Source: Leucoraja erinacea (Eukaryota). From it: 64,000 nucleotides of DNA. Location: assembly GCF_028641065.1 (NCBI RefSeq), contig NC_073400.1:29450001-29514000 (forward strand), written 5' to 3'. The position numbers were made by a program, and so were the translations under genes. Positions 8,600 to 64,000 of this stretch are shown here, in pieces. Numbering within the stretch: the first letter of the stretch is position 1; the number at the start of each line of letters is the position of its first letter. The notes below the pieces were generated by a model. That model was not told the origin of the DNA, made no database searches, and saw nothing but the letters and a program-made list of their open reading frames with translations.

Positions 8600-8653
<54 letters not shown>

Positions 8654-15057: not shown

Positions 15058-15160
15058 TGTTTTATCCGCAGTGACGAGACCAGCACTTGTCTGTCTGTCG
15101 CTCAGGTCTGAGGTCTCAGATACAATCGCATCTCTCAAATAGCAATGACTAAGAAGGGAA

Positions 15161-15184
15161 CAGGAAGTCAGATCGTGAACCACA
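15161..15184 (-). promoter_or_regulatory. Gene A proximal promoter ETS (CAGGAAGT) and RUNX (TGTGGTT) sites
   Basis: About 105-125 nt upstream of the ATG; retained in gene E at 58734-58757. Confidence 0.45.
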
Positions 15185-16569
15185 GCGAGCCAGTAGCAGC
15201 TCGACACGATGTAGTGTGAAAGGCTCAGGGTTATATTTAACAAATGGTTGGGTCAGATGATCACAGAGTCATACAGCAGGAAACAGGCCCTTCGACCCAA
15301 CGCGTTAGACCAATATGCTCATCTAAGTTGGTCAAATTTGCCCACGCTCGATCCATATCTCCCCAAACCTTCCCTATCCACGGACCTGTCCAATTGCCCG
15401 TTGCATATTGTTATTGCGGCTGCTTCAACCACTTCGTCAAGTATGATGTATCCGTAAGGTTGGAGCGGCGGTTATCTCTGTACTCGGAGTCTGTTAACAC
15501 TGAACAGTGGTGGAAATATTGATAGACAAAAAAATGCAGGAGCAAGTCTGCGGGCCAGGCAGCACATCTGGAGAAAATGGATAGGTGACGTTTCGGGTCG
15601 GGACCTCTCATGTAAACTATGATACTTTGGATGAAATATGACATTTAGAAGAGTAGAAACGTCTAAGATGTGTACACTTGCGGATCATTCCCTCTTGATG
15701 ATTTTGTAAGTGGACCGGCAGATCAAAAATATAATAATTTGTTTTGACATATTGCTGTTAACAAGGGGCAAAACAGGAAGCTGGCGTTAGGAAGTAGGGG
15801 CTTTTCACCTGTAACCAGCTGAGGTTAATTGGAGTTTGTCCCTCTCCTCTCTGCTTGGACTCGTCAATTCAAACTTTGAAACACTAATGTCATGATATTC
15901 ACGTTTTGAAAATGACAATTAATGGTGTAGTGGACTGTGAATAAGTTTGTCTGGAATTACCACAGGATGGAGATCAGCTGGGAAAGCGGGATGTGGAATG
16001 TAACTGACATGTGGAATGTAACTCAAACAAGGGCAAAGTGATACACTTAGTGAAGTTAAAGCAAGGTAGAATATGCACGGTGAATAGAATTGTTAACTTA
16101 TCTTCTTTGCAATGCAGAGCTAATAAATAATCAGGGTTGTGTCGATGTACCTGTCATTACTGAGTGTGTTCACCTGCTTGCATCGATTAATTTCAATCTG
16201 TACGCAATTAATTGCATTATAATATATCTAATATCTGCTGCGGGCTATCGTTCTGGGTGTGTTACTTTCAGGGAACAGTGCAGTTTAGCACTGTCAGAAC
16301 AATTCCGTGTAAAGAAATGGCTGTTTGAACATAAAGTACATTCCTAGCCAGAACCCACCACTAAAAACAACATTCTTTTTCTCCACTGATACTGCCTATC
16401 CCGCGGAGTTGCTCCAGTATATTGTGTCTCTCTGTGGCATCTCAGACTGTTTATCTCTCAATATTTGTGAGGCACTTTGGAACGTCTTGCAGTAGGGAAA
16501 AGCTCAAATTCAAGTTAATTACTCCCATTAGACCATTAATAAGCTCGAGTGCTTAAGGATAAGCACAGC

Positions 16570-37500: not shown

Positions 37501-40075
37501 CAGAACTCGCCAAGCCGTTATTTCTAATTTATTTAATTTCTTAATTTTAGATCAATTCTGATGTCCTCCATTTATGTTGAATCAGATTTGGAGAAGTGTC
37601 CTGACGCGAAATGCCTGAGACGCTGAGTTCCTCAATTAACTTGTTTGGTGATGAATATTAAAGAAACTGCACTGCACTAAGTCACAACTCAGTTATTGTC
37701 CATGTCCTGGACTGATTGCATCCTTTCGCCTTGAATCAAATGGTACACAATACAATAATAAATCCCTATTGTCACCAAACCAGTATCTTCGAATCCAAAA
37801 CTGCATTTTTTTAATCTGCAAGTTTATGTCTTCCTTTCTTGAATTTACAATAAATATTTTCTACTTTATCAATTCCTATCCAACAACTTCCCTTTTTCAT
37901 GTTTTTGTGTGTTCCTCTCGGTGCACCTGCAACGTTCTGTAAGAAACAAGCAGCTAGGTTGATTCACTGGAAAACAGGACCTGGAATAATGATGGAACAG
38001 TGTATCTTTAAACGTACAGAAAGGTGCAACCTATACAGGTACAGTAATTTACCTCTTCTGATTATTACTGGGAATGATGATCTATCAATACCAAAAAAAA
38101 TAATTAAAAGCACTATTCCTGATCTCCAATTAGACCCTTTACGTCTCTTGGAGTATATGTTGCATTTGTATTATCTGATTGTTCGATATCATTGATATAA
38201 ATACAATGTACAGGCCTAGAGGTGAAACATTTGGACAATCATAGTAATTCCACAGATTAACTACCATCTGACTTAAGAAGTTCCTCCTCATCTCCTTTTT
38301 AAAAGAGCACCCTTTAATTCCTGAGGCTATGACCAATGGAAACATCCTTTCCACATCCACTCTATGCTTTTCATTATTCTTTAAGGTTCCCCCTCAACCT
38401 TCTAAACTCTAGCGAGCACAGGCCCAGTGCTGTCAAACGCAGTCAATAGAGAATGCATAAAGATATCAGAGTCCATTTAAGCACGAGAGTGCCAACATAA
38501 TGCTCACTGACAAGATTTATCTAATACTCAAAATTTGTCCCCCAGCCCTTACTTCTCAAGCCGAGCAAGCACTCTGTAAAGATTCATAGAATAGGAAATA
38601 GGCAGCAGGAAGGTTGATCATGAGACTAGGCCGAGCCTGCACAAAACATCTGGCCGGAAGAGTTTCACATTTCTGTTTCCTCAAACAAAATGATGTGTGG
38701 CTGATAGGAAACACATAAATACAGTAAAGAAATGTAAATGCGGTCAATAAATAGAGGAATTTATTTGACAGTCTACTCCAAAATATAATTACGAATTAAA
38801 ATCTTGGCAGCAATGGATAACACCAATCCAAGTGAGGGGCTTATAGTCAATGGTGAAATGAGGAACAACATGTTCTCAGAACAGAAATGTGGAACAAGAT
38901 TTGTGGAAGCTAGATTGTGAAACGACTGTGAGATCATTGACAGAGACTGACCCTCAGTTTGAATTTCACAATGTGTAATTGACAATTTAAAAAATATATG
39001 TTTTTCATATTTTGATGGGTGGCACAGTGGTACAACTAGCAGAGCTACAGGCTTACAGAGGAGAGAGACCCGAGTTCGAGCTGACCTCGGGTTCTGTCCG
39101 TGTGGAGTTTGCACGTTCTCTCTGTGACCACGTTGGTTTTGCCCGGGTCTTCCGGTTTCCTGCTACATCCAAAAGACTTGCGAGTTTGTAAACTAATTGC
39201 CCTCTGTAAATTGCCCAGAGTGTTAAGGAAGTGTGTAGACACTTGTGTTTGAACATGTGATGGATGGTCGGCGCGGACTGATTGGGCGGAAAAACTTGCT
39301 TCTATGCTAAATCTCTGAACGAATCATCCAATAATATAACATGATGCAATGCGTTAACGTGTTAACAGGTTTGGAGAATAGCAACACAGGGGATTCCTGC
39401 GAATTGTGTGGTGAGCCTGGAAAGATTGTTCTTAACCCACCCAAAAATGTTGGGTATCAAAGGAAACTTGTCATCAGCAGCACGAGGGATGTAGATTAGA
39501 GCCCTAGGTGAAGCAGGCAATCGCTTTCAATTACCCTAATTTCCTTAGACATTACCAATCCTGATGACACCTTAATCCTGCCTCGTTCATCTTCCTGTCG
39601 GTCAATTAAAGTTGGATTCCTTTTTGTTTGCTGAGCGCAACGGAGAGGACTTTACAGTCATAGAGTGATACAGTGTGGAAACAGGCCCTTCGGCCAACTT
39701 GCTCACACCGGCCAACATGCCCCAGCTACACTAGTCCCACCTGCCCGCGTTTGGCACATATCCCTCCAAACCTGTTCTCGCAATGTGCCAGTCCAACGGA
39801 TAGTCCCTGCCTCAACTACCTCCTCTGGCAGCTCGTTCCATGCACTCACTACCCTTTCTTTGAAAATGTTATGCCTCAGATTCCTAGTAAACCTTTCCCC
39901 CGTCGCATTAAACCTACTCAAATTTAATGTGTGATATTTCATCGGCCACTGTCACGTTTCCTGTTGCATTCTTCCACGTTTATATTGCATTAATATCTGT
40001 GGTCTTGGGAAATAATTTAGCTCTGAGGCCAAAAAGCTGAACAACAAGCTTTGGCCTGGTCGTTTGGATAAAACC

Positions 40076-43000
40076 ATGTGGATTCTGATACTTCTCATTA
40101 GCTACTTGCCCGGTGAGTAACGTTCAGAATTGGACATTCTGATAAATAGTATTAGTTTGCCTGTTTCCGCTGCAGAGATGGTTTAAAAATGTCTAGACAC
40201 GTAAAGCTGCAAATGTTCAGCATACATTGTAATAATATGACTAGTATTGGAACATAGTCACGTAAACTCCCTGTCTATAACATGGTACCACACAAATCAT
40301 CACCTATGTATCTGACTCATATTTCACTTGGGCGGCTTACAACACAACGGCATGATTATTCATTTCTCTAACTTCAAGTAACCCTTGCATTCCCTCTCTC
40401 TGTGTCAATCCCCACCTTAGTCCTCTTGTTAACTTCACCTCTTTCATTCATTCGGCATCACCTCATCCCCAACCAACAATAGACCATTGTGGACTCCACA
40501 TGATTAATTGATGCAGGCTCTGTGTTGCTCTGTACTTTCCCATGCCTTTATTTTGCCCCTCCCTGACTCACGGTCTGGTGAAGGGTCTCGACCCAAAATG
40601 TTTCCTATTCCAATTTCTCCAAAGATGCTGCCTGATCCGCTGAGTTACTCCAGCATTTTCTGTCTATCTCAGACCATGGTTGATTGTGAAATAAACAAAA
40701 TGGGAGTTTATTTTCTGAAAGTTCATCTAAGTAATATAATCAAAGTGTAGTGGCGCCCATTCCATTTGTAAACACTAACAGTTCTCTCGTTCTAATTTAA
40801 AGCAGTAGTGAAATAACATCGTCTCCAATTATACTACACCGATTGTTTAAAGTGAAATGTATGAAAAATGAAATGGCTCCGGAACATGGATGAAGAAACA
40901 CAATGAGGGGCTTGACTGCGATGACAGCAATCTCGACATTAGTAATATATATTTTTATTTTAGTCTAATCTTGTTGTAGTCCACGATAATTCTTCTGCTC
41001 CCGTTGTCAAATGGAACTTTTGCCAATGTCACTGATTGTCAAAGCCATCATTTATGGTCTTGAACTCAATGTCTTTCTGGGCCATTAGAGGCGGACAATT
41101 AGTCAAGTCAAGTCAAGTCAAGTCAAGATTATTTGTCACATACACATACGAGATGTGCAGTGAAATGGTCACATATATTGCTGGGTTTGGAAGGTGGCGT
41201 ATAAAGAGGAGAGAGGGGGGTGGGGAGGCTCCAGCAGGGGCAGGTAAGTGGCAGGTGCACCTGGAGAGGGTGAGGGATGATGGGTGGAAGGTGAGGAGGG
41301 GGCGGGGGGGATTTGATGCCAGTGTGCGGTATGGGGAAAAAGACAAGGGGATAAACGAGGTTCAAGTGAATTGGATGGAGATATCTGGTAGTGAGGAGAA
41401 TACAGGGCAACATTACCTCCGACACTGCCGCACTCCCTCTGTGGGCGGCACGGTGGCGCATGGGTAGAGTTGCGGCCTCACAGCACCAGAGACCTGGGTT
41501 CGATCCGGCCGACGAGCGCTGTCTGTGCGGAGTTTGTCGGTTCTCCCTGTGTGTGTGGGCTTTCTCCGGGTGCTCTCCGGTATCCTCCCGCACCCCCAAA
41601 GCGTGCAGATTTCTGTAAAAATGAATATTGTCCCCCGTGTGTGTCAGATAGTGCTAGTGTATGGGGTTCGCTAGTTGGCGTAGAGTAGGTGGAACGAAGG
41701 GCCTGTTTCCACGCTGTATCTCTAAAGTAAAGTCTAAAGTCAGTACATCAAGGCCATGCATGGTGAGGGAGAACGGATCGTGGGATTTCCGAGGAGGCTT
41801 TGGCTCCCCTCCACCCCACCCACCCCACCCCACCACACCCGCACCATTACCAGCCCCACACCACCCCACGCTCCAATCCCAACTCTCTTCCAGCTATCCG
41901 CACCCAACCCCAAATAGTCTGAAGAAAGGCCCTGGTCAGAAACGTCTCTTGCCCATTCCCTTCTCTGTCGAGTTACACCGGGACTTTGTGTTTGGCCCAC
42001 GTGTAAGTGAATGTCCAGATACTGGTTGGACCATTTGCACCTTCGTTGGTAGGGGAAGAGGGGGTGGGCCAACAATGTGTTCAGCAGATGTGTCCTCTAC
42101 ATTCTCCTCTCAGTTTCAGGACCTGGATAGGTGACATTTTGGATAGCGACGCTTCTTCAGACCCAATACGTCACTAATCCATGTTCTAAGGAGATGATGC
42201 CTGGCCCGCTGGATTTCTCCAGCAGTCTGTGACTTGTTTCGGATCGGGGCCCTTATTCAGACTGCAAATAACCCAATTGCCTGCAGCTCTATACCTATGC
42301 AATAATGGTGAGTTGCAATCAAATTGAACTGTGAAATGTAACTTGCAGTTGATGTTGCCTAGTTTGGAGAAGATGTCGAATAATGAATGCGAAGGAATAT
42401 ATTTGAAAGGACAGCGAGGATGCTCAGTATTTTCTGACAGTATTTGATATTTCGTGTCAGTACCGCAAGTCCAGAAAGCCAGAGGTGCGAGGGAAGAAAT
42501 CAGTAAGTCTGGACAAACGATCAGCTTTTTTGACGTAACTGAATTTAATCTCCTATCTCAACAGACCTTGAATATCCTTGTGAAACCATAACAACGGAAT
42601 GGACAACGGCGCCATCTGAGAATGCAAAAATAACATCGAACAGTAACCGATACAGGTCCTTTGAAAGGTACAATGTTCTCAATTGATCAGTGTTGCGTCT
42701 GTAAGAGACCTGCTTCGAAGAGTCTAGTTTAGTTTAGAAATACAGCATGAAACAGACCCACCGCACAATCGACTCGACGTCGACAAATAATCGTGACTCT
42801 GTCCTACATTCTAGGGACAATTTACAGAAGTCAATTAACATAGAAACTGGCCAGCGCGTTTTTTGGAGTGTAGGAGGAAGCCAAAGCACCCGGTGAAAAC
42901 CCACGCGGTCACAGAGAGAACGCACATACTACGGACAGAGAAAACCCATAGTCAGGATCGAACCCGGATCTCCGAGGCAGCAACTCTATCGCTGTCCACT

Positions 43001-44229
43001 GTGTCGTCCCTGAGTCGCAGAGAGAAACAATGCAGAAAAAATGCCCATTCGGCCCATCATACCAGTGCCGACTATCAACCACTCATTTACACTCATCCAT
43101 CTTTTATGGCTTTCATTATTTCCCCCACATAATGATCACCTCCCCCAAAACATACAAGTCGGGACAGAGCCCTCTAGTGGTGACTGTAAGGTCAGTCTTA
43201 CCCAGACACAACATATTTCCCCCTCCTTGTAGATAAAGGCGATCATTTAAGTCCAGTTATCCAATCAAATATATGTTTTCCCCCGAATGAGTCGGGGGGA
43301 CATCTTGACTGGTTTTGACCTAGTCATTTTGCCTTGCATAAAATGCACTTACAGGCTCGGAACAACCAGAGTCGATTGTGAGTTATTTAACCGTCAAACA
43401 CAAGAACATATGACATTTCGTATTCCTATTCTGAACCTATTGTAAGTATCTTATTGAATAAATAACCATCATAAGCATTAGCATTGCCCACTCTCGTAGT
43501 GCACTCCTCAAAAGTTCAATAATGTTTCTCAAGCAAGATTTTCTCTTTTAAAGTCCCCGTCTATTATTCATTATAATTCTTATTTTCTTCATATCATCCC
43601 GTTTTCTCAATCAGTCAGGATTCTATCCCTGAAGATCAATCGCAGGCCTAATTGCTGGATCATATCTGCTTCAGTAGATATGGGCAGTGGGAAGGAGAAG
43701 TGGAATAGCAACTCTTACTTGGGATATTGCAATTCGATTGGAAATTGGAAGAGCCAGCAGATAGTTGAGGGATATTGTGCAAATTCAGGCAACAAGGGCT
43801 AGCCCAGAATGTCAATTTGGTCCGTTTTACAAGGTGGGGCGCGGGGGAAGGGTAGGGGGGCAAGGCCACTTTTCCATGCTTTGACCCAATAATTCCAAGC
43901 TGCTCTGGTCAATGAAGATTACAGAGGAAGCAGGAGATAAATGTTGCAAAGACAAAGCAATTCCCTTTCCTCCCATTGACGTTATATATTGTCTTCTTTC
44001 CTCAGTTGCATGATATGGAAAGTGGGGCGATGGGTGCTCTTTGCCCTGCTGGTGGTGTGGACTATTTCAGTTACATGGTACACAAGAAAACCCCAGGTAG
44101 GTTTTAATGGGCATCGGTGGAATCGCTGAATGCTCCAAAATGCTTTCAAATATACAGGCCAGTCACGAATCACCCACGAATCCTATTGAAACCAAAACTC
44201 ATTTTCAAAATTTTCAGTTCCGTGAGTAA
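40076..44229 (+). pseudogene. Gene C: Ig-less activating-type receptor (pseudogene or mini-receptor). Exons 40076-40112 leader, 42565-42667 stalk, 44006-44096 TM, probable terminal exon 44218-44229
   Basis: Leader MWILILLISYLP with GTGAGT donor; stalk DLEYPCETITTEWTT...; TM CMIWKVGRWVLFALLVVWTISVTWYTRKPQ. No V or C2 exon found in between; an orphan V-type acceptor ctcagtttcag lies at 42109-42119. Confidence 0.75.
41443..41740 (+). mobile_element. tRNA-derived SINE (HE1-like)
   Basis: A/B boxes, core and tail. Confidence 0.75.
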
Positions 44230-44314
44230 TATTATAGAACCTTTGTTGGCAAAATGAATTGCAGAGCGCAATGCGGTTAATGTCAGAGTCCTTGAGCCAG
44301 TTTCATAATTCATT

Positions 44315-44750
44315 TACGTCCAACTCCCTCTTAAATATAGCCAATGAACTTGCCTCAACTACCTTCTGTGGCAGAGAATTCCATAGATTCACCACTCTCT
44401 GTGTGAAGAACAACATTCTCATCTCGATCCTAAAAACTTCCCCCTTATCCTCAAACTGTGACCCCTTGCTCTGGACTTCCCCAACATCGGGAACAATCTT
44501 CCTGCATTTAGCCTGTCCAACCTCTTAAGAATTTTGCAAGTTTCCATAAGATCCCTCCTCAATCTTCTAAATTCTAGCGAGTACAAGCCGAGTCTATCCA
44601 ATCTTTCTTCATATGAAAGTCCTGACATCCCAGTAATCAGTCTGGTGAACCTTCTCTGTACTCCCGCTATGGCAAGAATGTCTTTCCTCAGATTAGGAGA
44701 CCAAAACAGTACGCAATACTCCAGGTGTGGTCTCACCAAGGCCCTGTACA
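44315..44750 (-). mobile_element. CR1/HER1-like LINE fragment
   Basis: ALVRPHLEYCVLFWSPNLRKDIL...; near-identical to 12-440. Confidence 0.88.
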
Positions 44751-44958
44751 ACTCGTCCTTGATTATGCTGCTGGCCTTGCCAAAGCAACGTGAGGTACGA
44801 ATGGAGTGAAGGAAAGAAGGTTGGTTTGTGTGATTACCATCAATCAGCAAAATTAGTTTCAGTCTTATTTGTTAGAAATAATCAAGGGCATGTTGTGATG
44901 TAAGGTCTCAGACATCAGCTGGTCCTTTGTGCGTTTTTGACTAGACTGCCTGCTGCCT

Positions 44959-44970
44959 ACTTCCTCATTT
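44959..44970 (+). promoter_or_regulatory. PU.1-like ETS site (AAATGAGGAAGT on the minus strand) about 100 nt upstream of the gene D ATG
   Basis: Motif match; same position as GGAA sites of the other leaders. Confidence 0.4.
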
Positions 44971-45063
44971 CTATTCCATTTATAATGTAAGTGTTTTTGT
45001 TAACTTTGAGGACAAAGAGCTGAGGGACAAACAGGTGTTGCCCTGGTCTCTACGAATCAAGCA

Positions 45064-45100
45064 ATGTGGGTTCCGATTCTTCTAATTTGTTCCTTGCCGG
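45064..45100 (+). CDS. Gene D leader exon (MWVPILLICSLP)
   Basis: 37 nt, GTGAGT donor. Confidence 0.85.
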
Positions 45101-48100
45101 GTGAGTAACAAACACAGTGAGATACTTCGATATTCAATTTTCTTTTGCGCCGTTTCCGCGTCAGAGATGGTTTTAAAATGCTGGTGCTTTAGACTTTAGA
45201 GATACAGCGTGGAAACTGGCCCTTCGGCCCACCGCACGGACCAGTAATCACCCCGCACACTAGCACTATCCTACACTCTAGGAGCAATTTACTGTTAACA
45301 AGAGCCAATTAACCTACAATCCCGAAGGTCTTTGGACAGTGGGAGGGAATTGGAGCAGCCGTGTCACAGAGAGAACTTACAAACTTCGAATAGACAGCAG
45401 CCGCAGTCAGGATCGATCCTGAGTCTCTGGCGCTGTTATAAGGCACCAACTCCACCGCTGCGCCACTGTGCGCCCTAATTCCAAGGATAGAAATTAATAC
45501 CGATGATGGATTATTTTCCCACATGTTACTTGTTCGTTAACATTCGTTGTTTCCATAAACTAAGGCACTGTCTGATTCATCTCTCCCCCACTGCGGACAC
45601 TGGACTTTGCCTTTGGAACTGGTGCGCTACAATGCCAAGAGCTATAGCCTGCATTCTATTAATCCCCCCTCGCTTTGCCTATTGTACTTGAGTTTGTCTT
45701 GATTGTATTTATGTACAGTATTATCTGGTTAGATTGATAGCACGCAAAACAAAACTTTTCGCTGGATCTTCGTACACGTGGCACTAATACACATCAACCT
45801 ACTTCCCTTTTAACTGCGCCACGAATAAAGACAAATAGTCGCAAAATGATCTGTCTTAGTTTGATATGATAATGTAAAGATTACAAGTTATAGGAGTAGA
45901 ATTAGGCCATGCGGTCCATCGAGTCTACTCCGCCATTCAATCATGGCTGATCCCTGCCTCCATTTTTCCTGCCTTCTCCCCATAACCATTGACACCCGTT
46001 CTAATCAAGAACATTCAATTTCTGCCTTAAAAATATCCCCTGACTCGGCCTCCACAGCCCTCGGAGGCAATGTGTTCCACGGTTTAACTACCATCTGACC
46101 AAAGCAGTTCCTTCGCACCTCCTTTCTAAAAGAGCGCCATTTAAATCTGCCCTTATAACCTCTGGTCCTAGACTCTCCCACCAGTGGAAACATCCTTTCC
46201 ACATCCACTCTCTTCATGCCTTTCATTATTCTCTAAGTTTATTAACCGTGATTTAGCAGCAAAAAATATCTGAATGAATGGAAAATGTCCTCTTCCATAA
46301 AGGGTAATGTTTCTAATGCGCTCTGGCTATCGTTGAAGGAACAGTGGAATTAATATCCCAAATCGTTAAATTGAAGAGAGTGCAGGGACGATTCACAAGG
46401 ATGTTACCGGGACTGGAAGACGTGCGGTATAAGGAGAGGTTAGATAGGCTGGAGGCACTACAAACTGTCGGAATCTTGAGCAAATAAATACAACTAGACT
46501 AAGTGGGACCCGTTGGGTCCCATGTTCACACGGGAAGCTGGTCCTCAAAAGCAATATTCCACCTCACCACCAATTCCAATATTTCTGGCCAGTGGTGGGG
46601 GGTGGATGGGGAGGGGGTGCTTTCTGGAGAGCTAGTATGGGTTTTGTGGGTCGAAGGGACTGGTTTCCGTAGGGGCTAGTATGGACATTGTGGGCCGAAT
46701 AGATTGTTGGGCCGGCAGCTCAGTCACTCAGGCCTGGTGAGCTAGCAGCTCAGCTACTCAGGCCTGGTGGGCTGGCACCTCAGTCACTCAGGCCTGGTGG
46801 ACTGGCAGCTCAGACGCTCAGGCCTGGTGGGCTGGCAGCTCAGACGCTCAGGACTGGTGGGCTGGCAGCTCAGTTACACAGGCCTGGTGGCTGGCAGCTC
46901 CGAAACTGCCAGAAATTCTGCCCAAAACAGGCGGGAGAGTGTGAGAGAGAAGGGGGAGAGGGTGGAGAATCAATTTTAGAAATTTTTCATCTTTTTCTGC
47001 AGATCACAGCAGTGAAGGTGGAAATTCTATCGTGGCCTGGATCTCACAGGGAGCAAAGGAAGGGAGGGAGAAAAATACTGGGGTGAGGTTTAATGCTTGC
47101 AGGGGGAATGCTTACTGATGGTCCGAAGGGACTCCTGGGCTAGTACAGGCCTGATGAGTCAAAGGGACTATTTAGTATAATCTGAGTGAGATCTAAGTGA
47201 AAGGCACTTTTTCTGTAGTTTTCCTGGCCTCGCATGGGACAAAATGCTCCTCCTGGGCTAATACGGGCATTTTAGGCAAAAGCGATTGGTTTCTCGGCTA
47301 ATAGGGGCCGAAATTAATGGTTTCAGGCAGGCCAAACAACTAATTTTATTTCATTTCCAATTGCATTGCAGTTTCAAGCACATGGCAGGCCAAGCCAAAC
47401 AGCAGATTGCATTTTCACTTCATTTCCATTGCCATTGCACTTTCAAGCACAGGGCAGGCTCAAGCCAAACAGCTCATTGCATTTTCACTACATTTTCATT
47501 GCCATTGCAGTTTCAAGCAGGCCAAACAACTAATTTCATTTTCAATGAGGGCTCACAAATCATTTATTCAAGTACATTGCATACTCACGGTGTTCTGTAG
47601 TATCCCAGTTCAGGCAGAGAGTCGTGACCTCTCCCTCGCCATCTTGTAGACAGACTGAGCCACGCCCACAATTCTGGGTTTTATACTCCCTCCCCACTCC
47701 CATCGGAAGGGACGTGGTCTTCATTACGTGATTGACAGGAGAGAGAATCTCAAGATTTATAAAATACTAATAAGTCTTTATTTTTCATTGATGGGAAACA
47801 TCCTCGGGGCCTGCGCAGTGGAGGACTCTGAGTAAGATGGGCAAAAAATCACAGCCATATGTGGTAGCGTTTTTTCTAAAATCAAAGCAGAGTCCAAACA
47901 GGAAGTGATCAAGATGACACCTTTAATTACATAGATGCCAGAGGAATTCAGCTGGTCGGGTTTGCATTGTGTTTGCCTTTAAAATTACCCCTCAACCCCC
48001 CCAACCCCCATCCCTTCTTCAGTTTCAGGCGTGTTGTGGGGAGACGGGTTGTTGTCGGCAGCTGTGGGAAAAGCGATCACAACCGACTGCCATTATGATG

Positions 48101-51100
48101 AAAAATATGGATCAAACACGAAGTACTGGTGCCGAGGGAAGAGGCGCCAGTGTTCCCTTTTAGTGGAAACAGACGGGAAACACGGACGGAGTGGAAGAAT
48201 GTCAATCACAGATAACCCAGCACGAGGAATATTTACTGTGACTGTGGAGGATCTTATCTTTGAAGATAATGGTTGGTACAGCTGTGGAATTACAACACCT
48301 GGCGAGGATCAGATATTCAGCACAGAGCTACGTGTGTATCGCGGTACGTTTATCAGCCATGTACTTGACCACTCCACTGAAATGCCAGATCCATGTTTTC
48401 TCCGGGAAGGGTCAGGGCAGCACAGATATCCCGAGGCTCCGCAGCAGTGCAGAGACCTGCGGGGAAACCCCACTCATGTTGCTCTCACCCAGTGCGGGCT
48501 CTGTCCCACTGAGTGGCCACCCACTTCAAGTGGGATGCTCAGCACATTTCCCTGCCTCCGAACTGTATGAAATGTCACCCTGTCAGAGGTTTGCATTCCG
48601 ACTCAAACTAATAATCCGACAGATCAGTGAGAAACAAGTGTTGCTCACAGTCTAAATATCTGGAGAATCATAAACAGGGAATCAGTCCCTAGAGATCAAC
48701 AGACTGCGTTCAGTCCTCCCGGAGCAGGTCAGCCCGCTCCCCGCCCCCACCTCAGGGATCAGTCATTCCCTCCGCACACCGACGTCTCTTTCACTCTCTC
48801 CCTCTGCCCCATCAATGCGCCCCCACCCCCAGCAACCACTGCCCACCCACCGCCCGGCAACTAGCCAGCCTCTCCCTGATGGGAGCCAGATTGCAACCTT
48901 GATTTTCACAGTGAACCATCCTCAGCTTCATCGCTGCTCATCCGATCTAAAGCGCTGCTGTGCACTGCAAACGCTATACACATGGAGAGGTACATCAATT
49001 GGAATGTATTCGAGGGATATGGGCCAAATGTGGGCGGGGGGTCTAGTGTAGATGGGACATGTTGGTCGGCATGACCAGGCGGGGCCCAAAGGGTTACCAC
49101 AGTGTATGACTATAGCTCTAATAGCAGACTTGGTAGCTTGGGCAGTTGGGAGGAAGCAGTGAAACAGAGAGATTTTAACATTTGGAGAAAAAGCGCTGAA
49201 ACAAGCCTTTCGCCCCACCAGCGATCTCCGCACACGAGCACTATCCTACACACACTCGGGACAATTTACGGTTATACCAAACCAATAAGCTTGCAAACCC
49301 GTTCGGCTTTGGAGTGTGGGAGGAAACCAGAGCACCCGGAGCAAACTCGTACGGTCGCAGCGAGATCGTACAAACTCCGTACGGAGAGCACCCGTAGTCA
49401 GGATTGAGGATTAAAAGGCTGATGCTCTACCGACGGAGGTATTCAGACTCTTAATGGGTAGGGGTGGATGAGATTGTGAGATTCCAACGACGAAAGACAT
49501 GGACATCCGACAGTGTTTGACTTTTTCAGGTGTAGGAAGGAACTGCTGATGTTGGTTTACACCGATGATGGACACACACACGCTGCAGCAAGTTAGCGGT
49601 CAAGCAGCATCTCTGGAGAAAAATAATAGGTGACGTCCGGGTCGACTGAGATTCAGGGGAGAGGGGAACTAGAGACATGAAAATGTACAATGCATGAAAG
49701 GTGTGTTGAAAGAACAAATCAAAGTCAGCCAGATGAACATGGAAAGGCGGAGCCCACAATGATCCATTGTGGATTCAAACAGTTAAACTAAACAAGACGA
49801 CAAGGAAATCAATCGGACCGACTAGGGTGGAGGAGGGAGGGAGGGAGTTAGATGAAAAGCAATGGTTTCCTCAACATCTATAAATTAAAATCTATCTTTG
49901 AATTTCAGGTATTCACTCAGTGTTTGATTGTTTGCCCATTTCCCACAGAATTCGTGTCTGCTCCAGTGCTTAGGTTTGCATCGCCAGCAAATGTCTCCTG
50001 TGTCGGAGGCTCGGTGTCAGTGTCCTGCGAGTCTTACTCGGGAACCCGTCCCATAAACTACACCTGGTTTGAGAAGGCCCCGTCCACGGATTTAATGACC
50101 TCCAACACCAGTGTACTGGACATCCATTGCCAGTCCTTGCAATACGACCACCATCAATATTACTGCACAGCCGCAAATATTCAAGGGGAAACAACCGGTG
50201 AAGTGTTGGACGTGGAGACCATCTCCATGGGAGAAGATAACTGCAGTTATGTGATGCGACTCAGTAACTCTGGTAAGTGGTGGAGCGAGTGACCAGCTTA
50301 GTCTTGCCGAAGGGCAATTGGCTTAGTCTTGCCGAAGAGCAAGTGCCGCGTAATCGCCAACTCCTGCACCTATTGTCTATTGCCTATTGTCTATTGTCTA
50401 AAAGGCCGAGGCACACGTCAAGCATGTCCGTGACATTGACGTTACAGAGTGAAGGAAGGAACTGCAGATGCTGGGTTACACTGATAATAGACACAATATG
50501 CTGGAGTAACTCAGCGGCTCAGGCAAGGAATCTCTGGAGAAAATGACGTTTCCAGTTCCGACCCTTCTTCAGGCTGGGAAGCAGTTTATTTCAATGCAAC
50601 CATTTGTTTTGTGCAGTACTGTCGGAGGTTGCATTAGATGCAATATAGCTTGATTTGTTCATTAGGGAGCGCAGCTGGTAGCACGCAACATAAGCTTTTT
50701 CATTGCACCTCGGTACACGTGACAATGAACCAAACTAAACTAAGCGTCAAAGGTTACGGGGAGAGGGCAGGAGAATGGTGTTAGGGGAAAAATAATCAGC
50801 CATGGTCGAACGGCGGCGTAGATGCGATCGATTGAATGGCCTAAATCGACGCCTGTGTGTTATGGTCTTATCTCGCCGTGTACTCGACGCTTTGCTGGGT
50901 CCATGGCTCCAATGGGTGCTGGTTCTTCAGAAATGGGCCTCTCAATGTTGACAAAGAGCAGTCGCCTGGCTGGAATATCCTCTGAAATTGGATTTGGTGT
51001 CCAGCTAAGCTGAGCCCTTTAAATGCCCCCCATAGCAACCCTGATCCTCGGAGATGGGGAAGAACCAGGAATTCCACATGTGTGTTGGCGGTATCGTTCA

Positions 51101-54026
51101 TCAGTTGCAAAAGATCATGAACAGCTTAGTCCCAACAGCCATCATGCTATTAAACTCTACAGCCGTCAGTAAGCTCTGAACTACGTAGACTATTGTGGTT
51201 ATTAATGCACTATTTATGTTTGTTTTTCTTTATGTTCATTTGTGCGCGGTCTACGGTCTACATGCGGTCTCAATGTTTACATATTCTGTTCTGCTGCTGC
51301 TTAAGAATGTTATTGTCCGATGGGGGACAGATGACAGATGACAATAATACACCCTTGACTCTCTCGATGTCATACTGAGAACCGTCACCATCTCCATGCA
51401 AGAGCCCGTGTCAAACAACTGTGCTCTCCTGCTGGACTACCAATGAAAAATGGGAAACTTAATTTAATTTTCTCCTCTCGGCAGAGTATAAATATCATTG
51501 TGGGCGCCCGACCACGGAATCAGCATCGACACAATCTGTCAACACAGAAACAACATCGGACATTCCCCCAGAGGAAACGTTTCAACCCCGTACTACTGAA
51601 AGGTACAACCAAAATTATTGGTTTCCACGTTGGTACTATTTTTATGTGAGCGGAGATTGGGGTAAAATTCCCTCATTTACTCGCAAACACCAAAAGCATG
51701 TGGATAAAACGATTTTTACTCATACTGAATATTGGGAATTGAATATACACAATTCTCACCTGTAAGGCAAGTTTCTCACACTAACATGTTTAATGCCACG
51801 GGCATAGAAGTGGAAGGTTATGTAATTACTTGAGAACGTAGCTCGTGAAAGTGAACATGTTGGCTCCGAGATTAGAATCTCCTATCAAAGATGCTGCCTG
51901 CCGGATAAGAAATTTCAAACTACTCATCTCTGGATCAGCGTCTGAAGAAGGCTTTCGACCGGCCACATTGCCTATCAACACCCTCCAGAGATGCTGCCTG
52001 ACCCGCCGAGTTTCTCCAGCATTCTGTGTCTTTCTTTTGTAAACGATTATCTTTAGTTCCTTGGATCTCCGTAATATTTACAAAGTTGAAAGGGATAATC
52101 CCTGATGGATTTGGATAATGTTTACCCTTGAAGCATCATCACCATCGTGGGTCATTTTCACACTGTTTGCGGGACTTCTTTTTCCAAATAGATTTTCACT
52201 GTACCTCGGTACACGTGACAAAAATATACTAAACCAAAGTAAACCAAATTGCACTAAACCTGCTGTAACCAGGTCGGCGCCTATGTTTGAGTTTAGTTTA
52301 AGTTTGGTTTATTGTCACGTGTTTCGAGGTTCAGTGAAAAACTTTTGTTGTGCGCTAACCAGTCAGCGGGAAGACAATGCATGGTGACAATCGAGTCAGC
52401 CACAGTGTACGGATGCCCGATAAGGGGAATAACGCGAGTGCAGGGTAAAGCCAGTAAATTCCGATCAAAGATGGTCTGGGGGTCTCTAATTAGGTAGATA
52501 GTAGTTTAGTCTGAAGAAGAATCTCGACCCGAAACGTCGCCCATTCCTTCTTTCCATAGATGCTGTAGTTCAGGACTGCTCTCTTTCTCAAACTGCCCTT
52601 CATTTACCGCACTTAACACACATTCTGTGGTTCTTGGTTTCTTGGTTCTCCAAAATATTCCAAATGGAATTTAAATCTGGAGGTGGTGGAGGGAGGACTT
52701 AAGCCAGAAAGGGTAAAAATATGGAACGCTTCACGAATTTGCGTGTCATGCTTGCGCAGGGGCCATGCTAATCTTCTCTGCGGTAAAGTGGACCTGCTCA
52801 ATGCTAGACATTTTTTCTTTCAGCGATGAACCAGGGCTGACTTCCTATTCTCGGTACCACATACCCACCTACATCAGTGTGATGGCTGTCCTTCTTCCGT
52901 TGGCGTTTGTTGCTGGTCTGTTTTGGTACCTGAAACGTAAAAACAGGGGTATGTTTTTTGTTTTTCTTTCATAGTTTGATGATTACGTGAGAATTTGCAA
53001 CATAGTGTATTTTTTTTAAGTTCTAATGGACAGAGCTGCACATTTGAAGTGCTCTCGTCATAATGTAGGAAGCAAGGATGCTTTTATGAGTTAACAACCA
53101 TTTAAAAAAAAGTTTTAGTGTTGTAGTGTGGAACCATAACCTGCAGCCGAAATCAGCCCACGACGACCATCGATACTAATCGGTTCACGCTGACCATCGA
53201 TCAGCCGTTCCCACTACTTCCATGCTACTCCACTTTCTCTTCCACATCCTGCACAATTTCCCCACTTCCTCATAATTCGACAGAGCAGATTTTTGATCAG
53301 TGCGTGGAATCATGCTGCAGCAGCGGGTCTGGTGGTTACACAAGTCTGAATGCAACTCATGGGTATTTACTGTCCCTGACATGGTCCTTTCAACAGTTGT
53401 ATTTCCAATGTTATATTTTCCAGAATTCAAGTGGATCACATATTACAGAGATGGCAGTGGAGACAACCAGGTAAAGGTGTAACATGTTATTTCTTCAAAT
53501 GTTTCAATATATTCGTAAGTTCATAAATGTCTGGAGCAATATTTCGCCGTTTTGGTCCATCAAGTCTACTCTGTCATTCAATCACGGCTGATCGATCTTA
53601 CCCTCTCAACCCCATTCACCTCCCTTCGCCCCATAACCCCTGACACCCGTCCTCATCAAGCATCGATCAACCTCTACCCTAAAAATATCCATTGACTTGA
53701 TCTCCGTAGACTTCTGTGGCAATGAATTCCAGATATCGACATGATTTGTTTGCAGTGGGTTATACCAGCTCCATCACCACTCGTTGCACGCTAGATTGAA
53801 TCGTCTACACAAAGCGACTCCCATCTTACTTCTTTGAGCCCCATCAGCAAATTGTATACTGCACAAGTTAATGCCTATGAATTACTTGCATTCAGAGTAA
53901 TTATGAGTAAAGAATCGATCCATTGTTCTGTTTGATAATTGTTGCGTTAGAGTTTCATTCATTACAAAATAATTTGTATCTTTCTTTTAGGAAATTGTAG
54001 CTCTGGAAGGGATTGACGATATTTGA
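45064..54026 (+). CDS. Gene D: MDIR/CD300-like receptor with a short ITIM-less tail (333 aa). Exons 45064-45100, 48029-48343, 49949-50272, 51485-51602, 52824-52948, 53424-53470, 53991-54026
   Basis: Consistent phases and the same exon architecture as gene B; uncharged TM; early TGA at 54024-54026. Confidence 0.8.
46711..46900. repeat. 30-bp minisatellite, about 6.3 units (GCTGGCAGCTCAGTCACTCAGGCCTGGTGG)
   Basis: Directly visible periodicity inside the Helitron. Confidence 0.9.
47325..47545. repeat. Imperfect tandem repeat of about 55-60 bp, 3-4 units (GCCAAACA...TTGCAGTTTCAAGCA)
   Basis: Directly visible inside the Helitron. Confidence 0.7.
48029..48343 (+). CDS. Gene D Ig V exon
   Basis: tttcag/gtacgt, 315 nt, open. 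Confidence 0.92.
49949..50272 (+). CDS. Gene D Ig C2-type exon
   Basis: cccacag/gtaagt, 324 nt, open. Confidence 0.92.
51485..51602 (+). CDS. Gene D stalk exon (EYKYHCGRPTTESASTQSVNTETTS...)
   Basis: cggcag/gtacaa, 118 nt, Thr/Ser-rich. Confidence 0.8.
52715..52780 (-). pseudogene. RNU6: U6 snRNA 5'-truncated retrocopy (U6 nt about 42 to the 3' end)
   Basis: Reverse complement reads CAGAGAAGATTAGCATGGCCCCTGCGCAAGCATGACACGCAAATTCGTGAAGCGTTCCATATTTTT, one mismatch to vertebrate U6 as I recall it; GGTAAA on both flanks. Confidence 0.93.
52824..52948 (+). CDS. Gene D TM exon (...IPTYISVMAVLLPLAFVAGLFWYLKRKNR)
   Basis: tttcag/gtatgt; hydrophobic helix followed by a basic stretch. Confidence 0.88.
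53424..53470 (+). CDS. Gene D first cytoplasmic exon (EFKWITYYRDGSGDNQ)
   Basis: ttccag/gtaaag, 47 nt. Confidence 0.8.
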
Positions 54027-54874
54027 CATCTGCAAAGACCAACGCGCCAGCTCGCCACGTGGCTAGCAATGTACATACACTTTCCTATGCAACAGTGTAA
54101 TTTGAATGGAACTGGGTGGCAGGGCACTTGGTTACTAACAGCAAAATGTCACCCACAGCCGACAACTGTCAAACTAACCCCCCGCCCCGCCACCCAACCT
54201 CCCCTGCCAATAATTGCTATAGTGCAGTAGCTAATTACACATGGAATATAAGCTCCGTTGCTTTTTACTTCCCCCTTGCTTCAATGTTGCATTGACGTCC
54301 TTCTACCGTAGTCTAACCACATACTTTGTTTAACGTGTTTTGTTCCAAGGAGTTCTTTCCAATTCCACCCCCACCCCCACTAGTAGATTATTATTCGCAA
54401 ATTTAATTAATTGTCGTTAACCTTCTAGTTCTACATCTTTGCTGATGGCGAAAATCGTCAAGTTTCTCATTCTAAACGTTGCATTTGGAATCTTGGTGGG
54501 ATTGGGCAAGAACAGCCCAAGTGAGAGGTGTTTGGGGAAAGGTGAGGTGCGGAACCGAGTGCTCGTTCCCAGTTAGTCAGCTCTGATCTATTGCAAACGC
54601 ACGAGTAGACACTCTGATATTGAAAGAGGCAATGGCTAATGTAATGGTGGAATGACAACTGCAGGAATTTGAAGGGCTGAATAAAACATGTACGAGTATG
54701 GATAAAGATGGGATCATTGTTTATAAAGCTCAATAATGATTGTAGGTATATGAGTAAATACATCAAACGGTGTCTTATCATACCAGAACCCAACAACTGA
54801 AGATGAAAGTTACAAAATGAGCTCAGCATTTTGCGACTCAGTGCGTCAGGCGACAGTTCTGAAGAAAATGGATC

Positions 54875-56620: not shown

Positions 56621-58860
56621 ACTAGTGGAAAGTCTATTGTTGTGCAGAACAAAATGGTTGAGTTGCAGCTTGCAAAGGGCGGGGTGTGAAACTGCAAATA
56701 CCCTGTGTTGCTTTCCTCAGTCTGACTTGTGACTGTAACCCCGCCCATGAAAGAACTGTGAAGGATGTTATTTGGAAATAAGAAATGGTGACCTGCAATA
56801 ACGGAGTAACCGCCATAAAGTTCGGATAGACTCAAGAATTGCTTTGGGTAAAATATCCCACTGACAAAGATAAATATTCTCCACATAGTTAGCTGGGGAC
56901 AAGGAAATGAGACCAGAGTCTGAACTCACAAACCCCCAGGTCATGGATATTAGAGGGGTGTTGAATAGCCAGAGATACTTGCAGATTCTGTGGTCACATT
57001 GATGCTGCCTGGCCGGTTCAAATTGAGCTTGTTAATGGTCTAATGGGGGGATGATCTTGAATTGGAGCTTTTCCACACTGCAGGACATCCCACAGCGCCT
57101 CACGGATAGTGAGAGCTAAACGGTCTGAGATGCCACAGATAGACACAAAATATTGGAGCAACTCAGCGGGATGGGCAGCGTCACTGGAGGGAAAGAACGG
57201 GTGACATTTCGGATCGATGCCACGGTTGTTTTTTAGTGGTGGGTGCTGACTTGCAATGTACTTTAATCTAATATGTTCAAACAGCCATCTCTTCCTTCAC
57301 AATGAACTGTTCTGCAGTGCTGACACTTTGCTCGCGCTGCTGAAACAAGGGTATGCAGATTCGTATCTCTGAACCGCATGTCGCGTGCAGCTCGGTGTAA
57401 CACTGTTTGCTGAGCTGTGTTTGCAGAAGTCACGGGTCAAAGGCGAATGAAGACAGGATTAAATTGTTTTGCTGCATCGTAGGTTCCTCTCTACAGAGTT
57501 TTTAGTTGGGCAAGTAAACAGGAAAAAGATCCTTTACTGAGGGTCGCCAACGCTCAGCTAACATAAGTGGTGGACACATCAGTGTGTTACACCCATACCA
57601 CGTGATGCACAACATTGCCATTGATGTACACAACCCGAATAAACTGCACTGTTCCCCTGAAAGTGACACACCCAGAAAGATAGCCCGCAGCAGATATTAG
57701 GTCATATTATAATGCAACTAGTTGCCTACAGAATGAAATCGTTGCAAGCAGATGTACAAAGTCAGCCAATGGAATGTACATGAGCACAACTCTGATAATT
57801 TATTGGCTCTTGTGAAGAAGACAAGTTAACAATTCAATTCACCGTGCATATTCTACCTTGCCTTAACATCACTATGTGTATCACTTCGTTCTTGTTTGAG
57901 TTACATTACACATGTCAGTTACATTCCACATCCCGCTTTCCCAGCTGATCTCCATCCTGTGGTAATTCTAGACAAACTCCTTCACAGTCCACAACACCAT
58001 TAATTGTCATTTTCAAAACGTGAATATCATGACAATAGTGTTTCAAAGTTTGAATGAAAGAGTTGAAGCAATGAGAAGAGGCTCAAAATCGAATTAACCT
58101 CAGTTGATTTCAGGTGGAAAGTCCCTACTTCCTAACGCCATCTTCATGTTTTGCCCCTTGTCAACAGTAAAAGTTCCAATGATTATATTTTTGATCTGCC
58201 GGTCCACTTACAAAATCATCAAGAGGGAATAATCCGGAAGTGTACACATCTTAGAAGTTTCTACTCTTCTAAATATCATATTTCATCCAACGTATTATTG
58301 TTTACATGAGGGGTCCCGACCCGAAACGTCACCTATCCATTTTATCCAGAGGTGCTGCCTGGCCCGCAGAGATGCTCCTGCATTTTATTTTTCTGTCATT
58401 ATTTCCATCACTGTTCAGTGTTAACAGACTCTGAATACAGAGATAACCGCCGCTCCATCCATAGGGATACATCATACACTACTAAGTCGTTGAAGCAGCC
58501 GCAATAACAACATGTAATGGGCACTTGGGCAGGGTCATTGATAGGGAGGGTTTGGGGAGATATGGGTCGGACGTGGACAAATTTGACCAACTTAGATGAG
58601 CATATTGGATTAACGCGTTGGGGAGAAGGGCCCGGTTCCTGCTGTATGACTGTGTGATCATCTGACCCAACCATTTGCTAAAGATATCCCTGAGCCTTTC
58701 ACACTGCATCGTGTCGAGCTGCTACTGGCTCGCTGTGGTTCACGATGTGACTTCCTGTTCCCTTCTTCCTCATTGCTATTTGAGAGATGCGGATGTATCT
58801 GAGAGCTCAGAGCTGAGCGACAGACAGACAAGTGCTGGCCTTGTCACTATGGATAAAACA

Positions 58861-61800
58861 ATGTGGATTCCCATTCTTCTCATCTCCTCGCTGCCGGGTG
58901 AGTGAAAGCCAGATGTTGATATTCCAATGTTCAATGTTAGTTGGGGTCCCGTGCACCCTTTCCACAGCAGAGATGGTTATGTGTGTGTACACATGTAATG
59001 GGGGAAATGGAACTCAGTGCATTGTGGTGATGGATCTGAATTCACATTTGAATATCTAGACTTTGTTCGAGTATTGATGAAAGGCATAAAATAGCGAATA
59101 AATTTGGAGCAGATATTCCAAGACACCTGGACCGAAGAACAGAGGTTCCAACATCACCAGGAAGTTAATTCTACACTAACAAAATGTGTTTAAAACTGAG
59201 GTGGAAGTCACGATTGTGGACTCATTGTGTCAGTTCAAATGTCCCCTGCATTTGTCCAACTCAACTTTGTCTTAAACCCAACAATTCCCCGGAGTCTAAA
59301 ACTGAACCACGGTCCGCGCTCTATCCACCCACTCCCAACTCTCTCTCCATCCTCTCTCCCGTCTGCGGCACAGTCGTGCTGAAAGGTCCAAGGCGAGCCG
59401 GGGTCATCGGGAATAGAACATGGCCCAGATGACCAGCGGGTTCCAAATTCAGTTTAGTTTATTGTCACGTGTACCGAAGTAGAGTGTTTTAGTTGCGAGC
59501 TCCTCCGTCAGCAGAAAGACAATCCATGATTGTTATCGATCATCTTACAGTGCATAGATACAAGAAAAGGAAATAACGTTTAGTGTAAGGTAAAGCCAGC
59601 AAAGTCCGATCAAGGGTAGTCCGAGGGTCATCAGAGAGGTAGATGGGAGTTCAGCACCGCTCTCTGTTTGTGGTAGGATGATTGAGATGCCTGATAACAG
59701 CTGGGATGAAACTGTCCCTGAATCTGGCGGTGTGCGTGTTCACGCTAGTAACGCTCTCCAGTAAGGGACCCGCTTTATTGTAACCCGTCCGTCCTCTGTC
59801 CTCAGTCAGGGCGTTGTAAAGGCGGTGAATGTCTAAACACGGGTCCGGCCCAGTGTCGGTTGAGAGATGAATGTTGGCAGCGCAGCCGGCGGCACCGACA
59901 ATGAAATAGCAAAGTGGGGTCTTTCTGTGGGGTGAGAGGCCGGGCACCGCCTGGGATTGTTGAAAGGCAGCTCCTGCAACACTGCCGCGCTCCCTCAGTA
60001 CCGCACTGCGATCCCAGCCCAGTTTCTGCTCAGGGATCTGGAGTGGGAAGTGAACCCTAATTGTACTGACCCGGGGACAGAACACTGACACAACTGGCAC
60101 AATAACATCACTGCCTGCACTTCAGACCGGAGACATTGGCTGTGAAGCAATATGACACATTATGGAACGTTTTAAGTTTTCTTTCATGTAATCTTCAAAA
60201 TGTATCTATTTCCATTAAACAGTTCATTTGCTCTCCATCTGAAAGTTTCTCCCCTCAGTTTCAGGTGCAGTGCGGGGAAAGAGGGAGGTAAGAGGAGTTG
60301 TGGGAAGAGCGATCACAATCGATTGTCACTATGCAGCAGAGTACCGCTCATACACAAAATACTGGTGCCGTTGGTGGACTATCCAATGTACAGTTTTACT
60401 GGATACAAATGGACAACACGGACGGAGTGGAAGAGTGTCAATCACAGATAACCCGACACGAGAAATATTTACTGTGACTGTGGAGGATCTTCAGTCTGGG
60501 GATACAGGATGGTACAGCTGTGGAGTTTATAAATTTGGCTGGGATCCAATGTTTGACGTTCATCTGCAAGTATATGATGGTACGTTTCGCAGCGATTGGC
60601 TTGACGTCTCCACTGAAATGCCTGGTCCATGTTTTCTCCGGGAAGTGCCACTTTAAGTGGGATGCTCAGCACACTTCCCTGCCTCTGAACTGGAAAAAAA
60701 AATCTAATAATCCGACAGGTACAGATCAGTGAGAAACAGGTGTTGCTCGCGGTCTAAATACCCGGAGAATAATAAACAGGGAATCAGTCCCCAGAGCTCA
60801 ACAGACTGCGTTCAGTGCTCCCGGGGCAGCGCAGCCCGCTCCCCGCCCCCACCTCGGGGATCTGTCACTTTCTCCCCCACCGCGCGCGCTCTCTCTCTCT
60901 CTCCCTCTGCCCCGTCAACGCGCCCCCACCCCCTGCAGCCACTGTCCACCCACCGCCCGGCAGCCAGCCAGCCTCTCCACCCGGACATTTCCCTGGTGGT
61001 AAGGAGAATAATTCATCTTTCGCCCCATCACCCGTCGCACACAGTATATAATCCTCCAACATTTTCGCCACTTCCACCGGAATCCCACAACTAGCCACAT
61101 ATTTCCATCTCCACCGCTTTCTCATCTCCGAAGAGACCGTTCCCTCCGCAACTCCCTGGTCAACTCGTCCTTTCCCACCCAAACCACCCCGTCCCCAGGT
61201 ACCTACAACTGCAGCAGATGCAACACCTGGCCCTATACCTCCTCTGTTCACTCCTTCTAAGGACTCCAACAGTCTTTTCGGGTGAAGCAGCGGTTCACTT
61301 GAATCTTCTCTAAACTCTTCTACTATATCCGCTGTTCCATGTGTGAACAAGATGGGAGACCAAGCGCAGACTCGGCGATCGTTTCGCTGAACAACTGCGC
61401 TCAGTCTGCCTCGGCCTACGCTAATTCCCGTTTGCTAAACACTAACTCCCCCTCCCATTCCCAAACTTACCTTTCTGTCCTGGACCTCCTCCACTGTCAG
61501 AGTGAGGCCAAACGCAAATTGGAGGAACAGCGCCTCATATTTCGCTTGGGCAGCTTACAACCCAGCGGTTTAAATATTGACTTCTCAAACTTCAAGTAAC
61601 CGTTGTTGTACCCCTGTCTCAATCCCGCCCTAGTTCTCCATTTAGATTCACTGTCCTCTTCATTATATTTTACAGATTGTATGCCTCGTTGTCACCTTCC
61701 CTTCGTCTGACAATGATCCATTCTGCATTTCCGTTTAACATTGTCAACTTTTAGCACTTTTTTTCCCTCCTTATTCTTCCATTACTCTTCTGTCACCTAG

Positions 61801-63945: not shown

Positions 63946-64000
63946 GTAGGTTTCTCAATGAGTGACTTTATGTCTCCACTTTGGCAACTCATAAAACATT

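Follow-up and report, generated by a model that had tools for sequence, protein, structure and literature searches.

An immunoglobulin-less gene in a skate MDIR cluster, probably a decaying unprocessed pseudogene

A 64,000-nt stretch of the genome of the skate Leucoraja erinacea (G000:C24:29450001-29514000, called the window here) carries part of a cluster of immunoglobulin (Ig) receptor genes, and among these is a gene, at window positions 39956-44229, that has no Ig exons. This Ig-less gene stands head to head with an MDIR2-like gene on the minus strand (window 34531-29958), 5.5 kb away, and is followed by a further receptor gene, referred to as the next gene. For mapping of the family, 350 kb of flanks were also examined: the family extends from about -52 kb to +158 kb of the window, with 13 leader, 21 V, 17 C2 and 7 Arg-bearing transmembrane (TM) exons. 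The product of the minus-strand neighbour (P0037, leader at 34531) has 76% identity with the clearnose skate MDIR2 (P0053). Sister genes match the V-set domain PF07686 in Pfam, in which the stalk and TM frames of the Ig-less gene have no match, and a C2 exon used as query gave 68 proteins from 321 candidates, all from sharks, rays, skates or a chimaera, with names that include pIgR-like, FcRL5-like, CMRF35-like and MDIR2. MDIRs are presented in the cited part of PMC3031540 as CD300/TREM/pIgR-like receptors, both activating and inhibitory. Judging from its homologous leader, stalk start and TM and from its position in the cluster, the Ig-less gene is by descent a member of the MDIR (CD300/pIgR-like) family; having neither Ig domains nor the family's tail exon, it is filed here as a probable unprocessed pseudogene and not as an MDIR receptor.

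What survives lies on the plus strand. The promoter and 5' untranslated region (39956-40075) aligns with 12 sister promoters, is 72% identical to that of a paralog 104 kb downstream, and contains two TTCC motifs, which we take to be of the ETS type. It is followed by a leader (signal peptide) exon of phase 1 (40076-40112, donor at 40113), a stalk exon running from phase 1 to phase 2 (42565-42667), which starts as the stalks of V-C2 members do and keeps their Cys, and a TM exon running from phase 2 to phase 0 (44006-44096), with the N-terminal Arg of activating-type members. The closest 5' paralog is the Arg-TM gene at +144 kb, that is, 104 kb downstream, with which intron 1 has an 85% block in common. 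An earlier annotation of this gene, made from the sequence alone (the sequence-only reading), held that the promoter GGAA and an intron-1 motif are retained; the promoter TTCC/GGAA motifs and the intron-1 motif do align with sister genes. Its description of the TM as "activating" is sound by homology, the Arg being near the outer end. The in-frame join that it proposed, from leader to stalk to TM to a short exon at 44218, can also be reproduced, with GT/AG at all ends, 80 codons and no stop. It should be added that all these introns are of phase 1, so that splicing of the remaining leader to the remaining stalk keeps the frame as a matter of course.

The TM exon has 22/30 residues identical to the best ray proteins and 14-16/30 to six paralogs of the same cluster. 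Four columns that do not vary in 31/31 relatives, those of Arg, Trp, Phe and Leu, are preserved in it (for Arg and Trp, partly through the way the rows were chosen). Since the TM core is kept, with up to 22/30 identity to ray proteins, the gene was constrained for most of its history. Five residues encoded by the TM exon are nevertheless found in 0/31 relatives, three of them at columns constant in 28-30/31, and the TM motif is KxxR, where the closest 5' paralog has NxxR.

The loss of the Ig exons has left a well-defined junction. The end of an intron, with the intact acceptor of the lost V exon (41872-42113, plus strand), has 73-81% identity with the intron that precedes a V exon 90 kb downstream, at window-equivalent 132.2 kb. 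Next comes a remnant of the V exon itself, its first 8 nt (42114-42121, plus strand), of which 7-8 nt match on comparison with 19 sister V starts, and then, directly after the deletion junction, an interspersed repeat (42122-42240) without its first 55-60 nt; other copies of the repeat have this missing 5' arm. The intron identity and the V-start match, followed by the 5'-truncated repeat, confirm the earlier claim that the V acceptor survives and runs straight into a repeat. The companion claim, that use of the leftover acceptor reads into a stop, holds for either AG (42114 or 42120), the in-frame stop being at 42128-42130, inside the repeat fused to the V remnant. DNA profiles built from 19 V and 17 C2 sister exons were run over 39000-44940: the only V match is at 42099-42121 (E 0.055), and the C2 profile finds nothing at E < 0.1. 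Weak Ig-like matches on the minus strand around 42354-42461, with 0.016 as the best E from 70 queries, are unsupported by these profiles and were rejected. From V start to stalk there are 451 nt in the Ig-less gene, against 3.1-3.7 kb in three sister genes. By its sequence, the junction is the signature of a deletion from position 8 of the V exon into a repeat of a later intron. The C2 exon was probably lost too, because both the start of the stalk and its Cys are those of V-C2 members.

The same junction is found in a second source of DNA. One of two runs listed as matching, X1, is of an unrecorded kind, with contigs that run across introns and an organism label that differs from that of the RNA runs. 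An X1 contig over 41873-42523 crosses the junction without a gap, at depth 22 and with 4 differences (4/651), and the presence of the junction in an independent DNA run means that it is not an assembly error. Over six pieces, X1 differs from the window at 57/3281 positions (1.7%), which implies that X1 is not the assembled individual and that the deletion is older than the split between the two. It also postdates the duplication by which the Ig-less gene and its closest 5' paralog, at +144 kb, became separate, which places its age at about 1.7% to 15% pairwise divergence. Past 42523, 42 nt before the stalk exon, the X1 contig continues with 490 nt or more that have no counterpart at this place in the window, so that either X1 has gained an insertion or the window has lost a further segment.

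The 3' end of the gene is damaged as well, and here the earlier statement that all other exons are intact is too strong. In 6/6 other Arg-TM genes of the cluster a short tail exon follows the TM, 0.4-3 kb on and with a common acceptor context, and an AATAAA lies within 846 nt of the tail. In the Ig-less gene, none of the six tail exons has a significant match in 44097-45060, and there is no AATAAA or ATTAAA in 44097-45063, i.e. before the ATG of the next gene. Where sister genes have the tail exon and polyA signal, there is an interspersed repeat (44316-44753). The candidate last exon of the sequence-only reading (44218-44229, plus strand, three codons and a stop) uses an unrelated acceptor 121 nt past the TM donor; it is not the family's tail exon, and its choice is a guess. 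A segment at 44179-44205 was considered as a decayed family tail exon and rejected, because 88/500 shuffles scored as well (the best loose alignments gave 18 and 22/500, across six queries). Two side observations concern the proposed last exon. Its first ten bases (44218-44227) open Phe-Arg, like the alternative last exon of the sawfish proteins P0059/P0069; and its fifth base starts a donor-like hexamer (score 3.7), such that a 4-nt exon would fit the phase of the next gene's V exon, probably by chance.

Between the V remnant and the stalk there is a donor-like site, overlooked in the sequence-only reading, at 42308. It has the same six intron bases as the leader donor, and on a matrix of 17 distinct family donors, which is small and biased towards paralogs, it scores 9.5; the family donors themselves range over 3.6-12.6, and the stalk donor of the Ig-less gene has 3.4. 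Together with the V acceptor, which has 15/17 pyrimidines against 12/17 for the stalk acceptor, it would define a 194-nt exon (42114-42307, plus strand), predicted to bring a stop after 17 codons, about 370 nt before the last junction. With its stop so far upstream of the last junction, such a transcript is a predicted target of nonsense-mediated decay.

RNA reads were examined in 3 of 12 raw-read RNA runs, with about 5, 6 and 25% of each read and the tissue not recorded; the data used comprise 8 pieces, 40 of the 1141 differences and 15 of the 4297 joints. Over 43710-44110, which includes the TM exon, the RNA depth is 0 in 3/3 of these shallow runs. The leader and stalk bins of the Ig-less gene are swamped by reads from repeats, and among the 15 of 4297 joints listed none joins leader to stalk. 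The next gene has a mean depth of 0.3-1.1 in its stalk bin and is weakly expressed in two of the three runs: its V exon is covered at 48219 by 0, 4 and 6 reads, which come from a single strand and include some with no other difference. In the sampled runs the Ig-less gene is therefore expressed less than its weakly expressed neighbour, although sampling this shallow leaves its silence unproven.

Comparison with X1 gives little indication of selection on the TM exon. In this exon 4/91 bases differ (Cys to Tyr, Ala to Thr, and two silent changes) compared with 6/411 in the flanks (Fisher p 0.09; one of the 10 differences was unlisted and was counted as flank), so there is no sign of constraint on the exon. 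The Cys just before the TM, at window 44008, is private to the window, X1 having the family's Tyr. The open frame can be set against an estimate for neutral decay, which takes a target of 243 nt with 36-44 disabling targets and an assumed indel rate: the chance of an intact frame is 0.64-0.70 at 1% divergence since the loss, and 0.41-0.49 at 2%. The open frame is therefore uninformative unless the deletion is old.

Taken together, we consider that the Ig-less gene is probably a decaying unprocessed pseudogene of an activating-type MDIR, which has lost its V, C2 and tail exons. It has two of the features of an unprocessed pseudogene: the introns and promoter of the parent family are kept, and both lesions, the V-C2 deletion and the loss of the tail, remove function. 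Other dead pieces in the cluster are counted in favour of this reading. The sequence-only reading had offered both a deletion pseudogene and a working mini-receptor; the former is the better supported, and the latter found no positive support. In the course of events that we favour, an activating-type MDIR would have lost V and C2 in one deletion and the tail exon in another. Its transcript would mostly run from the leader to the V acceptor and on to the cryptic donor at 42308, meet the stop after 17 codons and be degraded, or may alternatively run on into the next gene. That the leader-stalk-TM frame has stayed open would be due to a recent loss and to the small size of the target, 243 nt. 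The copy may have been dispensable because an intact Arg-TM gene, 104 kb downstream and with Ig domains like those of the inhibitory MDIR2-like gene, could be the activating partner of the latter. As a protein, the Ig-less gene most likely does nothing.

Several points weigh against the pseudogene. The leader, stalk and TM exons have no stop or frameshift in the window, nor in the X1 pieces listed for leader and TM, and if the deletion is old this is hard to obtain by neutral decay, the chance falling to 0.11-0.16 at 5% and 0.01-0.03 at 10% divergence; the bracket on its age is wide. The promoter and leader (39820-40134) show 0/315 differences in X1, where about 5 are predicted from the pooled rate of six other pieces, 57/3281 (P 0.004 at a uniform rate, from one contig only); in this they resemble the promoter of the expressed next gene, with 1/379. 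As to the 3' end, 39% of random 846-nt windows also have no AATAAA or ATTAAA, variant hexamers are present in the 3' stretch of the Ig-less gene, and a sawfish relative has both the family tail and an alternative last exon that also opens Phe-Arg. The acceptor matrix, built on 31 family sites other than V, has a bias towards paralogs and gives low scores to all 18 V acceptors; it is therefore unable to rank the V acceptor against the stalk acceptor. Finally, the evidence on expression comes from small fractions of three runs with no tissue record, and from a small share of the joints.

If the V remnant were skipped, the gene could encode an 80-codon Ig-less membrane peptide, in which the TM Arg would pair with an FcR-gamma-type adaptor bearing an immunoreceptor tyrosine-based activation motif, and either titrate it away from sister receptors or signal independently of ligand; possibly it would be a disulphide-linked dimer through the orphaned stalk Cys. 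We regard this as unlikely. The open frame with its canonical splice sites and the retention of the constant Arg, Trp, Phe and Leu columns speak for it, as do the deletion held in common with X1 and the invariance there of promoter and leader. An Ig-less isoform of pre-TCR alpha provides a precedent in the portion of PMC2193641 relied on, and Arg-TM receptors are described in the relevant part of PMC2413239 as binding FcR-gamma, from which the pairing proposed here would follow by analogy. However, no read covers the TM exon in 3/3 shallow RNA runs, the V acceptor with its good donor at 42308 competes with the skipping, and the tail exon and canonical polyA signal are gone. By the usual cleavage rule, the signal peptides of the family are likely to be cut at small residues that the V exon supplies, and these would be skipped. 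Nor is there an excess of silent change in the TM exon (2 replacement, 2 silent), or any short relative among 7/7 representative TM matches. By analogy, such a peptide would be a fixed Ig-less derivative of a CD300/pIgR-like receptor, present in at least 2 skate lineages and tuning the signalling of the cluster as pre-TCR-alpha-b might, but hard-wired by deletion; we hold this wider proposal to be doubtful. If true, it would mean that ligand-blind modulators of adaptors can arise from Ig receptors in one step.

It is also improbable, in our view, that the coding part is dead while the promoter and leader are kept for another purpose, either as an enhancer or shared element of the MDIR2-like gene, or as a second first exon for the next gene, spliced to its V exon at 48020 (phase 1 to phase 1). 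Such a role would fit the contrast within X1 between promoter and leader (0/315) and TM exon (4/91), as well as the compatible phases and the lack of a canonical polyA signal before the next gene. The contrast comes from one contig of one run, however, and rates vary along the locus (4/651 at the junction). In addition, no joint from the leader to 48020 is found among the 15 of 4297 listed, and splicing from the leader would have to pass over three acceptors to reach the V exon of the next gene. That the animal does have V and C2 exons at this place and the assembly has left them out, as the sequence-only reading had allowed, is suggested by the repeat-rich cluster and by the unfitting X1 sequence past 42523, which indicates structures that differ near the stalk, but the independent X1 contig has the same V-remnant/repeat junction and crosses it without a gap, which largely refutes this for the V exon and makes the proposal very improbable overall.

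As a pseudogene, the Ig-less gene is a further example of a paired-receptor cluster in which an activating gene has been lost, and should be useful in annotating the little-studied skate MDIR locus. It also carries a warning, which is that an open frame is the default outcome when exons of symmetric phase are lost.

The remainder of the cluster contains further broken pieces: a leader without ATG (L017, window-equivalent -52435), a frameshifted V exon (L024, 75638), and a V exon with no C2 or TM ahead of the next leader (L020, -28239). Among the intact genes, the next gene (window 45064-54030) is of V-C2 type with an uncharged TM, and the database model P0020 (884 residues) merges it with the gene that follows; several other database models matching the C2 query look fused too. 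At window 3996-16287 and 57025-64000, V-C2 cassettes have been duplicated over long stretches, inverted as well as direct (87-92%), and build multi-module genes on both strands. The intact Arg-TM gene downstream (L030-L032, window-equivalent 143992-158440) has 87% identity with the inhibitory-type MDIR2-like gene in V (92/106) and 91% in C2. The two, 110 kb apart, are likely to be a paired set, and their likeness in V and C2 exceeds that suggested by their tails and TMs, as in gene-converted receptor pairs. Past +175 kb, the flank mapping shows more distant V and TM relatives: a second group of V exons (within L028-L039, window-equivalent 175000-260200) is 32-39% identical to the main group, and at 182 kb and 260 kb there are TM exons of the Arg type.

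Relatives of the surviving exons were sought in protein databases. HMMER, run with the TM frame against 1.84 billion representatives, found 7 matches, all of at least 275 aa and none short, within a database clustered at 50% and built from gene calls that neglect short spliced products. Six of the seven contain Ig domains (P0036 and five others), and the seventh is P0074 (1569 aa, 33%). Word-based protein searches with the TM and stalk frames gave 1 candidate each and no match, which is uninformative as to orthologs or a record of 80 residues, since the TM search missed P0023 and P0025, in which 14 residues in a row are identical to the TM query. No ortholog in another skate was identified in the protein searches as run. 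The sawfish protein P0059 was considered as a candidate ortholog, but leaders of this type are widespread outside skates, and some ray proteins are equally good or better matches, so that its orthology is not established; leader and TM give too few columns for a tree. Literature searches found no report of an Ig-less MDIR; the gene list of the founding MDIR study, reportedly that of Cannon et al. 2006 on the clearnose skate, was outside their coverage and may bear on novelty.

With the MDIRs of the clearnose skate, the Ig-less gene shares cluster and exon plan, and its leader, stalk start and TM are homologous to those of the V-C2 members of rays and skates, whereas the V and C2 domains and the family tail exon of MDIRs are missing. 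Among better-known systems, the closest in kind is the LILR/KIR complex, in which, according to the part of PMC10206138 drawn on here, pseudogenes and gene fragments lie among working paired receptors. These fragments are, like the Ig-less gene, partial copies with intact-looking leftovers among activating and inhibitory paralogs, but in the cases described there they keep Ig domains and have no leader or TM, whereas the Ig-less gene has lost its Ig exons and has the remainder in frame. The receptors coupled to FcR-gamma through an N-terminal TM Arg include, in the relevant passages of PMC2413239, LILRA2, PIR-A, NKp46, GPVI, OSCAR, Fc-alpha-R and the Xenopus TM1 class with NxxR; they resemble the Ig-less gene and its paralogs in their short tail and in a TM whose outer end bears the Arg, but have ligand-binding Ig domains where the Ig-less gene has none, and adaptor coupling of MDIRs would be by analogy with them. 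Lastly, an Ig-less splice isoform of pre-TCR alpha is documented at the mRNA level in the section of PMC2193641 used here. In that isoform the leader is joined to the connecting peptide and TM with no Ig exon between, which is the arrangement that a mini-receptor from the Ig-less gene would have; the isoform is, however, a product of alternative splicing of an intact gene, while in the skate the Ig exons have gone from the genome by deletion, and the corresponding transcript is a candidate only.

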